NCBI GenBank assembly: GCA_965368975.1
Contig: CBDUPA010000015.1
Location: forward strand, 64,001-128,000
Length of the DNA: 64,000 bases
Direction of reading: 5' to 3'
DNA from: an uncultured bacterium
GTDB taxonomy: Bacteria > Acidobacteriota > Thermoanaerobaculia > Multivoradales > JAHZIX01
A program made the translations under genes and the position numbers. Positions 4,686 through 5,102 of the stretch are shown here, one piece after another; the stretch's first letter is position 1; the number at the start of each line of letters is the position of its first letter. The notes beneath the pieces are model-generated. The model did not search any database and was not told the DNA's origin. It worked only from the letters and a program-made list of their open reading frames with translations.

Positions 4686-5102
4686 TCAGTTCACTTCGAT
4701 CTCGAAGTCCTGCAGGGCTTGGATCTCGTCAGCATTGAATCGGACGCGTCCGAGGTTCTGGAGGAACGCCTCGCGCCGGAACACTACTGGCAAGTCGAAG
4801 ATCGACTCGTAGCGGTAGGCCCAGATGCTCAGGTTCCACCAGCTCTCGCTCCAACCACACGACGCTTTACCGCCGATCTGGCTGGCCAGAGACTCGATGC
4901 GACTGAGAAATCCCGGAACGACTTCGCCCTTGTCGAGGCGGATGTGGGCCATCGGCTCGAGCGCGGGGCGCGTTCCGGCCTTCTCGTGCGCGGCCATGCC
5001 GAGCGCTATCTTCAAGCGCTCCTGGCCGGCCTGCTCGACAAGCTCCGAGTCCTTCAAGGCTTTCGCGATCTCCACAATCGACATTTGAGGTGCGTGTGCC
5101 AT
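4686..5102 (-). CDS. Putative RiPP precursor (138 aa) with internal aromatic core WSESWWNLSIWAYRY
   Basis: ATG at 5102 with strong SD AGGAAGGAG; directly upstream of and co-oriented with the rSAM gene; all 4 Trp and both Tyr of the protein cluster in 15 residues after a GG motif. Confidence 0.7.
   Translation of the reverse strand: MAHAPQMSIVEIAKALKDSELVEQAGQERLKIALGMAAHEKAGTRPALEPMAHIRLDKGEVVPGFLSRIESLASQIGGKASCGWSESWWNLSIWAYRYESIFDLPVVFRREAFLQNLGRVRFNADEIQALQDFEIEVN

Follow-up and report, generated by a model that had tools for sequence, protein, structure and literature searches.

A 138-residue Trp-rich protein encoded beside a radical SAM/SPASM enzyme in an uncultured acidobacterium is a probable substrate for aromatic crosslinking

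Darobactin, dynobactin, and the xenorceptides are made through aromatic crosslinking by radical S-adenosylmethionine (rSAM) enzymes, and no other class of natural products is known to act on BamA. In the darobactin precursor the core is close to the C-terminus, with a follower of no more than 2-3 residues, and the biosynthetic gene cluster (BGC) includes the DarBCD transporters. Daropeptide cores are of the W-N-W-x-K/R-x-F or W-T-F/Y-R-F type (PMC9055067). According to the available text of PMC11002830, three-residue cyclophane enzymes join C6 or C7 of Trp to the C-beta carbon of an Arg, Asn, or Asp located at i+2; the W3-K5 bond of darobactin has the same i/i+2 geometry (PMC10125368, available text). 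The BGCs of xenorceptides include genes for proteases and transporters, the precursors have a Gly-Gly motif for cleavage, and type A xenorceptides share a W-T/S-K/R-S-F 5-mer with darobactin (bioRxiv 10.1101/2024.12.16.628070, available text). In this study, we analyzed a 64,000-nucleotide stretch of DNA (hereafter, the window) from an uncultured member of the Acidobacteriota (assembly GCA_965368975.1, contig CBDUPA010000015.1, positions 64,001 to 128,000), in which a small Trp-rich protein, P0001, is encoded directly upstream of an rSAM/SPASM enzyme, P0002. The locus is best seen as a new form of rSAM aromatic-crosslinked (triceptide- or daropeptide-like) system, with a long substrate that is modeled as folded and an internal core of four motifs.

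P0001, a precursor-like protein of 138 aa, is encoded at 4689-5102 on the minus strand (4686-5102 was translated), and its translation includes SQIGGKASCGWSESWWNLSIWAYRYESIFDLP. The start at the ATG at 5102 is supported by the Shine-Dalgarno-like sequence AGGAAGGAG, 6 nt 5' of it, and by the N-termini of the homologues, which align there. The protein is composed of a conserved leader (residues 1 to ~80), an aromatic core (residues 84-100, WSESWWNLSIWAYRYES; 4803-4853, minus strand), and a conserved follower (residues ~110-138). The core, supported by column statistics and AlphaFold2, is internal, with a conserved follower of ~40 aa after it. It encloses the stretch WSESW-WNLSIWAYRY at 4809-4853 to which a first-pass annotation, made from the sequence alone, had drawn attention, and which the minus-strand translation reproduces exactly: WSESW spans residues 84-88 (4839-4853), and WNLSIWAYRY spans residues 89-98 (4809-4838). 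Residues 84-98 hold all four Trp and both Tyr of P0001. The core carries four aromatic-x-X3 motifs, W84-S-E86, W88-W-N90, W94-A-Y96, and Y98-E-S100. No family in Pfam, NCBIfam, or PADLOC matches P0001.

Exhaustive HMMER searching found 11 homologues of 127-160 aa (E 5e-17 to 9e-4), after P0010 and P0011 (602 and 698 aa, each with 6-7 short repeated stretches) had been removed as repeat-driven false matches. Profile searches enlarged the family to about 50 sequences, likewise of 127-160 aa. The named members are all annotated as "hypothetical protein", and neither Pfam nor NCBIfam holds a model for them. Two subfamilies, the window type and the Larkinella type, were distinguished. Their leaders have in common an invariant G59 and P63 and a nearly invariant G26, E39, E40, P50, and A80, and their followers have conserved F122, E126, L130, and L133. 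The window-type core reads W-x-[KR]-[ST]-W-[LIT]-[ND]-[LV]-x-[IV]-W-x-[RK]-x-W-x-[DEN], and the Larkinella-type core reads Y-L-N-L-R-I-W-x-R-I-W-x-R-x-W-x-R.

Column statistics were computed from 26 window-type sequences (including P0055) and 24 Larkinella-type sequences (including P0019). Some alignments were built without P0040, a fragment of 72 aa, P0041, which lacks the Trp motif (E 3.8e-6), and P0019 or P0055. The first-pass annotation had suggested a check of whether the aromatic columns are the best conserved, and its outcome was positive: they rank with the best conserved in the 25 other window-type members, in which W84 and W88 were each found in 25/25, W94 in 24/25, and Trp at position 98, a Tyr in P0001, in 24/25; the core Trp columns are as conserved as the invariant G59 and P63. 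The columns two residues further on are also restricted, with K16/R5 at position 86, N21/D4 at 90, R19/K5 at 96, and D12/E7/N2/Q2 at 100. Many members are close relatives, and these counts overstate independence. After clustering at 50 %, the 11 representatives have W84, W88, and W94 in 11/11 and W98 in 10/11, and, at the +2 positions, K/R86 in 8/11, N/D90 in 11/11, R/K96 in 10/11, and D/E/N100 in 8/11. In the Larkinella type, Y88-x-N90 is followed by three W-x-R motifs (W in 23-24/24, R in 23-24/24). Across both subfamilies, the conserved set of the core is the aromatic positions together with their +2 positions. The W-x-E and W-x-Y pairs, put forward earlier as crosslink sites, lie on this conserved i/i+2 register.

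The first-pass annotation is partly supported by these alignments. It had described a tandem of a darobactin-like and a dynobactin-like half. The former is a family trait, with the consensus W-x-[KR]-[ST]-W and the sequence W-S-K-S-W in P0003 and P0048, although P0001 itself has Glu in place of the darobactin-like Lys. The latter is confined to P0001. Aligned without gaps to dynobactin A (WNSNVHSYRF; PMC10125368, available text), the decamer WNLSIWAYRY does share W1, N2, Y8, and R9, as had been stated (BLOSUM62 score 33), and the W1-N4 and H6-Y8 crosslinks given there for dynobactin agree with the available text of PMC11002830. This score was the best among the 110,027 stop-free six-frame decamers of the window (next best, 21) and so an outlier there, although for a decamer that had been picked after the sequence was seen. 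As sequence likeness the resemblance is real, for P0001 alone: position 89, the W1 equivalent, is L17/T3/I3/A2 and never Trp in the other members, position 96 (Y8) is R19/K5/D1, the R9 position is variable, and the best ungapped scores of the homologues against dynobactin were at most 16, at unrelated places. The end "ESIF", which had been likened to a beta-signal, did not hold up either. Residues 99-102 are mostly S/A, D/E, G/D, and P/Q elsewhere in the family, and 36 more residues follow, including the conserved follower.

Directly downstream of the gene that holds the stretch is an rSAM/SPASM gene of DarE/DynA/anSME-like type. This rSAM/SPASM gene, at 3429-4586 on the minus strand, encodes P0002 (386 aa), assigned from Pfam, NCBIfam, and PDB matches and from an alignment of its Cys residues. 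P0002 is in the radical SAM/SPASM superfamily, with matches to Radical_SAM (PF04055, 75 bits) and SPASM (PF13186, 34 bits), both above the gathering scores. Its CxxxCxxC motif is at residues 12-19, and it has neither an N-terminal extension nor a domain of the recognition element (RRE) of peptides that are made by the ribosome and modified after translation (RiPPs). In the enzyme alignment (A5), no variation occurs at C12, C16, C19, or six Cys further on. Among NCBIfam models, P0002 scored against DarW (269 bits, cut-off 650), DarE (267 bits, cut-off 650), anaerobic sulfatase maturase (TIGR03942; 247 bits, cut-off 349.45), DynA (203 bits, cut-off 450), GrrM/OscB (161 bits, cut-off 310), AmcB (150 bits, cut-off 425), YhhB (146 bits, cut-off 445), FxsB (143 bits, cut-off 370), and XyeB (95 bits, cut-off 450), under the curated cut-off in every case. 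"DarW" is not described in the searchable literature. The nearest solved structures by sequence were anSME (4k37, E 2e-42) and the rSAM domain of ChlB (9gm3, E 4e-24). By sequence, P0002 falls within the anSME/DarE/DynA/cyclophane-synthase part of the SPASM superfamily and in none of the named families. DarE itself is nearest to anSME in full-length sequence, according to the available text of PMC10288494, and full-length scores therefore cannot separate formylglycine from cyclophane chemistry.

The P0002 gene is ~100 nt 3' of the P0001 gene, and the four genes at 2855-7363 are all on the same strand. A genome search with P0002 among species representatives returned eight loci. Five of them, four in Larkinella and one in an alphaproteobacterial metagenome-assembled genome (MAG), encode an enzyme without an N-terminal extension that is 37-39 % identical to P0002 (alignment A5), and directly upstream of each enzyme is a P0001 homologue of 142-143 aa. 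In two loci (L014 and L015), the enzyme has an N-terminal extension of ~120-140 aa, and no member of the P0001 family is found anywhere in the genome. The eighth locus (L016) is a partial, distant match to P0002. In genomes G448 and G449, the family member beside the enzyme is the sole copy. The family was found in 1/401 genomes of the phylum of the window, in 1/401 genomes of the class of G449, and in 1/301 genomes of the order of G448, each time only in the genome at the center of the comparison. A comparison of P0001 with 60 related genomes gave nothing below E 0.0067, taken as noise. A word-index homologue search with P0001 alone gave 18 candidates and recovered only P0001 itself, a metagenome scan with family alignment A3 gave 594 pattern matches and no relatives, a scan with alignment A4 gave one 1,155-bp contig (L017) that ends at the stop of the gene, and plasmid tblastn with P0009 and P0018 gave no match. 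Since the family is so rare, its repeated adjacency to an rSAM gene is not background, and this adjacency across three distant lineages is strong evidence, at the level of gene order, that the two genes form a functional pair. Other neighbors vary: in Larkinella they are AraC-like and glycosidase-like genes, and in the alphaproteobacterial MAG (L012) they are a second rSAM gene and an HNH-like gene. The conserved unit is just the P0001-like gene and the rSAM gene.

The spacer between the two genes holds a G+C-rich hairpin with an 11-bp perfect stem (4634-4665, minus strand), found by RNA folding (z -2.3) and followed by no U-run; a consensus scan did not call it a terminator because of the missing T-run. 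The same scan found no sigma-70-like promoter in 2500-7800. L009 and L012 have a hairpin in the corresponding position (in L009, a stem of 13 bp with UUUUU after it, z -3.1; in L012, a long stem, z -2.5), thus between the substrate and enzyme genes in 3/3 loci folded. When a hairpin follows the precursor gene of a RiPP operon, it commonly keeps the substrate transcript in high ratio to the enzyme transcript. The spacer hairpin therefore favors P0001 as a substrate over P0001 as an accessory factor.

P0001 was modeled by AlphaFold2 from alignments of 14 and 48 sequences, with a mean predicted local distance difference test score (pLDDT) of 78.4 and 80.0, respectively, and a predicted template modeling score of 0.63 for both. 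The model consists of two N-terminal helices, a strand at residues 52-56, a core beta-hairpin at 83-90/95-102, a poorly defined linker, and C-terminal helices. The block pLDDT is ~90 for residues 50-90 and 76-91 for the core blocks. Judged by this predicted secondary structure and pLDDT, P0001 is neither an "ordinary globular domain", the outcome that was to refute the earlier proposal, nor a floppy short precursor. A Foldseek search of the PDB with the model gave no match at E <= 0.001 (best TM-scores ~0.2), and the best ESM Atlas value, 0.81, is at chance level. The wide VIA-align search gave a best Z of 4.6 over 64 aligned residues, with only helices matched, a result that establishes neither a new fold nor a known one.

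The pairing was also modeled as a complex, from alignments A5 and A1 together with SAM and three 4Fe-4S clusters. Across three runs, the score came to 0.52, 0.52, and 0.00 (median 0.52), and the highest of three controls scored 0.02; the runs had at least 22 % contact agreement and a partner pLDDT of at least 50. In the calibration, which used other alignments and no ligands riding along, the score mark was reached by 58/80 solved complexes and 2/110 mismatched pairs, and the scores of 0.60 or less comprised 7 of the 80 solved complexes and both mismatches that passed. The predicted complex favors the pairing, as a small push.

Taken as a reading of sequence and gene order, P0001 is probably the dedicated substrate of the adjacent P0002, with aromatic crosslinking as the modification. 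P0002 would dock on the folded leader and follower part of P0001 and remove a C-beta hydrogen two residues after an aromatic position (+2), and that C-beta carbon would then couple to the indole or phenol ring. An ether link would be possible where the +2 residue is itself aromatic (W94-A-Y96 and Y96-R-Y98). Residues 84-100 would in this way acquire as many as four small i-to-i+2 rings and be locked as a rigid beta-strand or hairpin. Residues i and i+2 of a strand point to the same side, an arrangement that would suit i-to-i+2 stapling. We infer the modification itself, its chemistry, and the number of rings. A crosslinked protein or long peptide would be as likely a product as an excised short peptide, because the 40-aa follower is conserved and no protease or exporter is.

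Several observations weigh against P0001 as a crosslinked substrate. The folded alpha/beta unit modeled for it is unlike the typical short and disordered RiPP precursor, and the complex prediction was classed as just "weak support". P0001 is off the family consensus at E86 (K/R), Y96 (R/K), and Y98 (W), and W89 replaces Leu. The window-type subfamily has only the P0001 locus itself with usable gene context. No protease or exporter is co-conserved across L009-L013, nor is an RRE across the loci. Finally, the anSME score of P0002 almost equals its DarE score, and the genome (G000) holds 21 sulfatase-domain (PF00884) matches.

Among described systems, the triceptides resemble the locus in motif. 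As in the systems of XncB/XyeB, OscB/GrrM, MscB/FxsB, and YhhB, repeated aromatic-x-X3 motifs with Arg, Lys, Asn, or Asp as X3 are paired with a SPASM rSAM enzyme, and four aromatic-X2-X3 motifs, defined in the available text of PMC11002830 by an X3 with a C-beta-H partner (Arg, Asn, Asp, Ser, and Lys among them), stand on a conserved register in both subfamilies. P0002, however, is under the cut-off of the XyeB, GrrM/OscB, FxsB, YhhB, and AmcB models, and it scores lower against GrrM, YhhB, FxsB, and XyeB than against DarE and anSME. Unlike the xenorceptide loci as described in the available text on them, the loci of the P0001 family have no conserved protease, transporter, or Gly-Gly motif. 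With darobactin, the locus shares the DarE/DarW branch of the enzyme, Trp-centered i/i+2 motifs, and a family W-x-K/R-S-W that is similar to the W-S-K-S-F half of darobactin. It differs in that the match of P0002 to DarE begins at model position 77, with ~70-76 N-terminal positions unmatched, and in that P0001 is long (138 aa), its core is internal with a follower of 40 aa, and no exporter is conserved. The best P0001 7-mer against WNWSKSF, CGWSESW, has three identities, is internal, and has no W-x-W ether motif. With dynobactin, whose maturase is DynA in NCBIfam and DynE or DynB in papers, the locus shares an enzyme without an N-terminal extension (the DynA model is matched from position 4) and, in P0001 only, the four identities in ten residues of the decamer, after which 40 residues follow. 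The DynA score is less than half of its cut-off, the decamer likeness is absent from all homologues, and the first ring of dynobactin spans i to i+3, going by the available text, whereas the conserved partners in the P0001 family are at i+2. By analogy, the locus most plausibly works like the three-residue cyclophane systems.

A different outcome had been anticipated in the first-pass annotation, namely a longer polycyclic ligand of BamA. In this alternative, the modified core would be excised as a polycyclic mimic of ~15-19 residues of the outer-membrane protein beta-signal, a bamabactin with darobactin-like and dynobactin-like halves. It draws on the decamer as the best dynobactin match of the window (33 vs 21), on the resemblance of the family W-x-K/R-S-W to the 5-mer of darobactin and type A xenorceptides, on DarW and DarE as the nearest models to P0002, and on the fact that known bamabactins are beta-strand mimics and the P0001 core is modeled as beta-strands. 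Against these stand the dynobactin-like W1, Y8, and R9, kept in no homologue, an "ESIF" end that is neither conserved nor C-terminal, and a Glu where the darobactin-like Lys is expected. No ABC (ATP-binding cassette) exporter or protease is co-conserved in L009-L013, nor is a self-protection gene co-conserved, and the permeases near the window locus are on the opposite strand, with 26 bits to DarB (cut-off 700). The core would need to be excised, to be exported, and to bind its target, and no gene or conserved sequence feature was found for any of them. Binding of BamA by a modified core is unsupported by the sequences, and this outcome is highly improbable.

P0001 might also be a substrate for other chemistry, such as anSME-like oxidation of Ser87 (or Cys82) to formylglycine, epimerization, or another C-H functionalization. 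anSME is the closest solved structure, its model scores 247 bits, and position 87 is S22/T2/D1 in the window type. In the Larkinella type, however, it is Gln in 24/24, and Cys82 is not conserved across the family. The motif recognized for sulfatase maturation is C/S-x-P-x-R, and it is not present in the P0001 translation. What both subfamilies conserve is the aromatic and +2 positions, and other chemistry is accordingly judged unlikely. A further proposal is that P0001 is an accessory (chaperone, recognition, or regulatory) partner of an rSAM enzyme that acts elsewhere, for example as the anaerobic sulfatase maturase of the genome. P0002 is the best anSME-like gene of G000 (246.9 bits), in a genome with the sulfatase-domain matches noted above, P0001 is modeled as folded, and some rSAM systems have small chaperones, for example WprC. 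P0002 does share with anSME the architecture without an N-terminal extension. Unlike anSME, it is under the cut-off of 349, it is paired with a Trp-rich small protein and not with a sulfatase, no sulfatase adjoins it, and it has a relative in only 1/30 related genomes. G000 also has 27 FGE-domain (PF03781) matches, for aerobic sulfatase maturation. The spacers of ~100 and ~110 nt around P0001 and of 94 nt in L009 leave little room for another small open reading frame (ORF), as scanned down to 30 aa, and four invariant Trp with conserved +2 partners would be needless in an accessory protein. There is thus only a slim chance that P0001 is an accessory protein. Several FGE domains of G000 sit within open frames of >1,000 aa.

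The pair is flanked by two further genes on the minus strand. A P-loop NTPase-like gene of 206 aa (2855-3472), with AAA_16 (weak; 31.5 bits, cut-off 32.6) and AAA_22 matches, overlaps the 3' end of the P0002 gene by 47 nt; 0/30 related genomes carry a relative, and no counterpart is found beside the pair in L009 or L012. A protein of 716 aa with no known family is encoded at 5216-7363, 110 nt upstream of P0001. It has no Pfam, NCBIfam, or PADLOC match, no counterpart in L009 or L012, and a best ESM Atlas value of 0.79, at chance level. Relatives were found for its C-terminal ~240 aa only, in 11/30 related genomes and in a paralogue (G000:C31:36746-37414); they are proteins of ~400 aa, 25-32 % identical, and represent an unnamed domain family without a Pfam or NCBIfam model. 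The GC content is 0.61-0.65 over 2800-7800 and 0.68-0.70 outside. This dip and the patchy distribution of relatives of the P-loop gene, the 716-aa protein, and P0002 fit a lineage-specific block around P0001 that was probably acquired. A defense-system reading of the locus was dropped: PADLOC was empty for P0001 and the 716-aa protein and gave only generic rSAM (pVip) matches, of 42 and 31 bits, for P0002.

Some features in and outside the window were recorded beside the pair. Two tandem permeases of the ADOP family (TIGR03434, 925 and 929 bits, cut-off 622) are encoded at 7409-9916 and 9882-12377 on the plus strand, divergent from the 716-aa gene, and the 26-bit match of the first of them to the darobactin exporter permease DarB was taken as generic FtsX-family likeness. 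On the other side, citrate-synthase-like genes stand back to back at 150-1502 (minus) and 1578-2906 (plus), with PRK12350 scores of 136 and 318 bits (cut-off 332); the first has an extra N-terminal stretch of ~100 aa that is helix-turn-helix by appearance only. In the alphaproteobacterial MAG, a second rSAM/SPASM-looking ORF (355 aa), with a 161-aa ORF upstream, is located at L012:5746-7279 (minus), ~600 bp downstream of the pair. An Acidobacteriota MAG has, at L014:3644-5381, a DarW-like rSAM (305 bits, cut-off 650) with the N-terminal extension of ~120 aa, followed by a 99-aa ORF that is PqqD-like by appearance only; this seems to be a different peptide-modifying system. A follower fused into the enzyme extensions of L014 and L015 was considered and rejected, since hhalign with the family profile gave probabilities of 2.1 % and 0.5 %, and the look-alike "F-D-A-D-E...L" of L014 is not evidence. 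In a Patescibacteria MAG (L016:3260-3698), tandem Cys-rich ORFs of 63 and 65 aa with near-identical C-terminal halves lie just upstream of an rSAM gene, in what looks like a classical small-precursor RiPP locus.

Compared with known precursors, the P0001 family stands apart in its length (~140 aa), its modeled folding, its internal core, its four Trp-x-(K/R/N/D) motifs, and its pairing with an RRE-less enzyme and no transporter. The family is not described in the searchable literature, and the networks of the triceptide landscape (JACS 2022) may already hold it. Both large surveys of RiPP-rSAM systems chose their loci for association with an RRE or for an ABC transporter at the same site, according to the available text of PMC10288494, and loci like that of P0001 and P0002 would presumably have been missed under such selection. 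If P0001 is indeed crosslinked by P0002, the pair would contribute a new scaffold and perhaps an enzyme of new specificity, and it might show crosslinking chemistry on a protein rather than a peptide.

A precedent for such a product is the QhpC/QhpD system, in which an rSAM/SPASM enzyme crosslinks a small protein, the gamma subunit of quinohemoprotein amine dehydrogenase, that remains in a protein and is not released as a free peptide. The QhpD model gives 83 bits on P0002. The QhpC crosslinks are Cys-to-Asp/Glu thioethers. The present pair differs: the P0001 family has no conserved Cys, and no dehydrogenase subunits are adjacent. We tentatively raise the possibility, itself rather doubtful, that the end product is not a small natural product but a folded protein of ~15 kDa in which as many as four rSAM-made aromatic i-to-i+2 crosslinks staple an exposed beta-hairpin. 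If this is true, the conserved leader and follower would be lasting elements of the fold and not throwaway tags for recognition, and the cyclophane or ether "RiPP chemistry" would serve as a structural post-translational modification of a protein.

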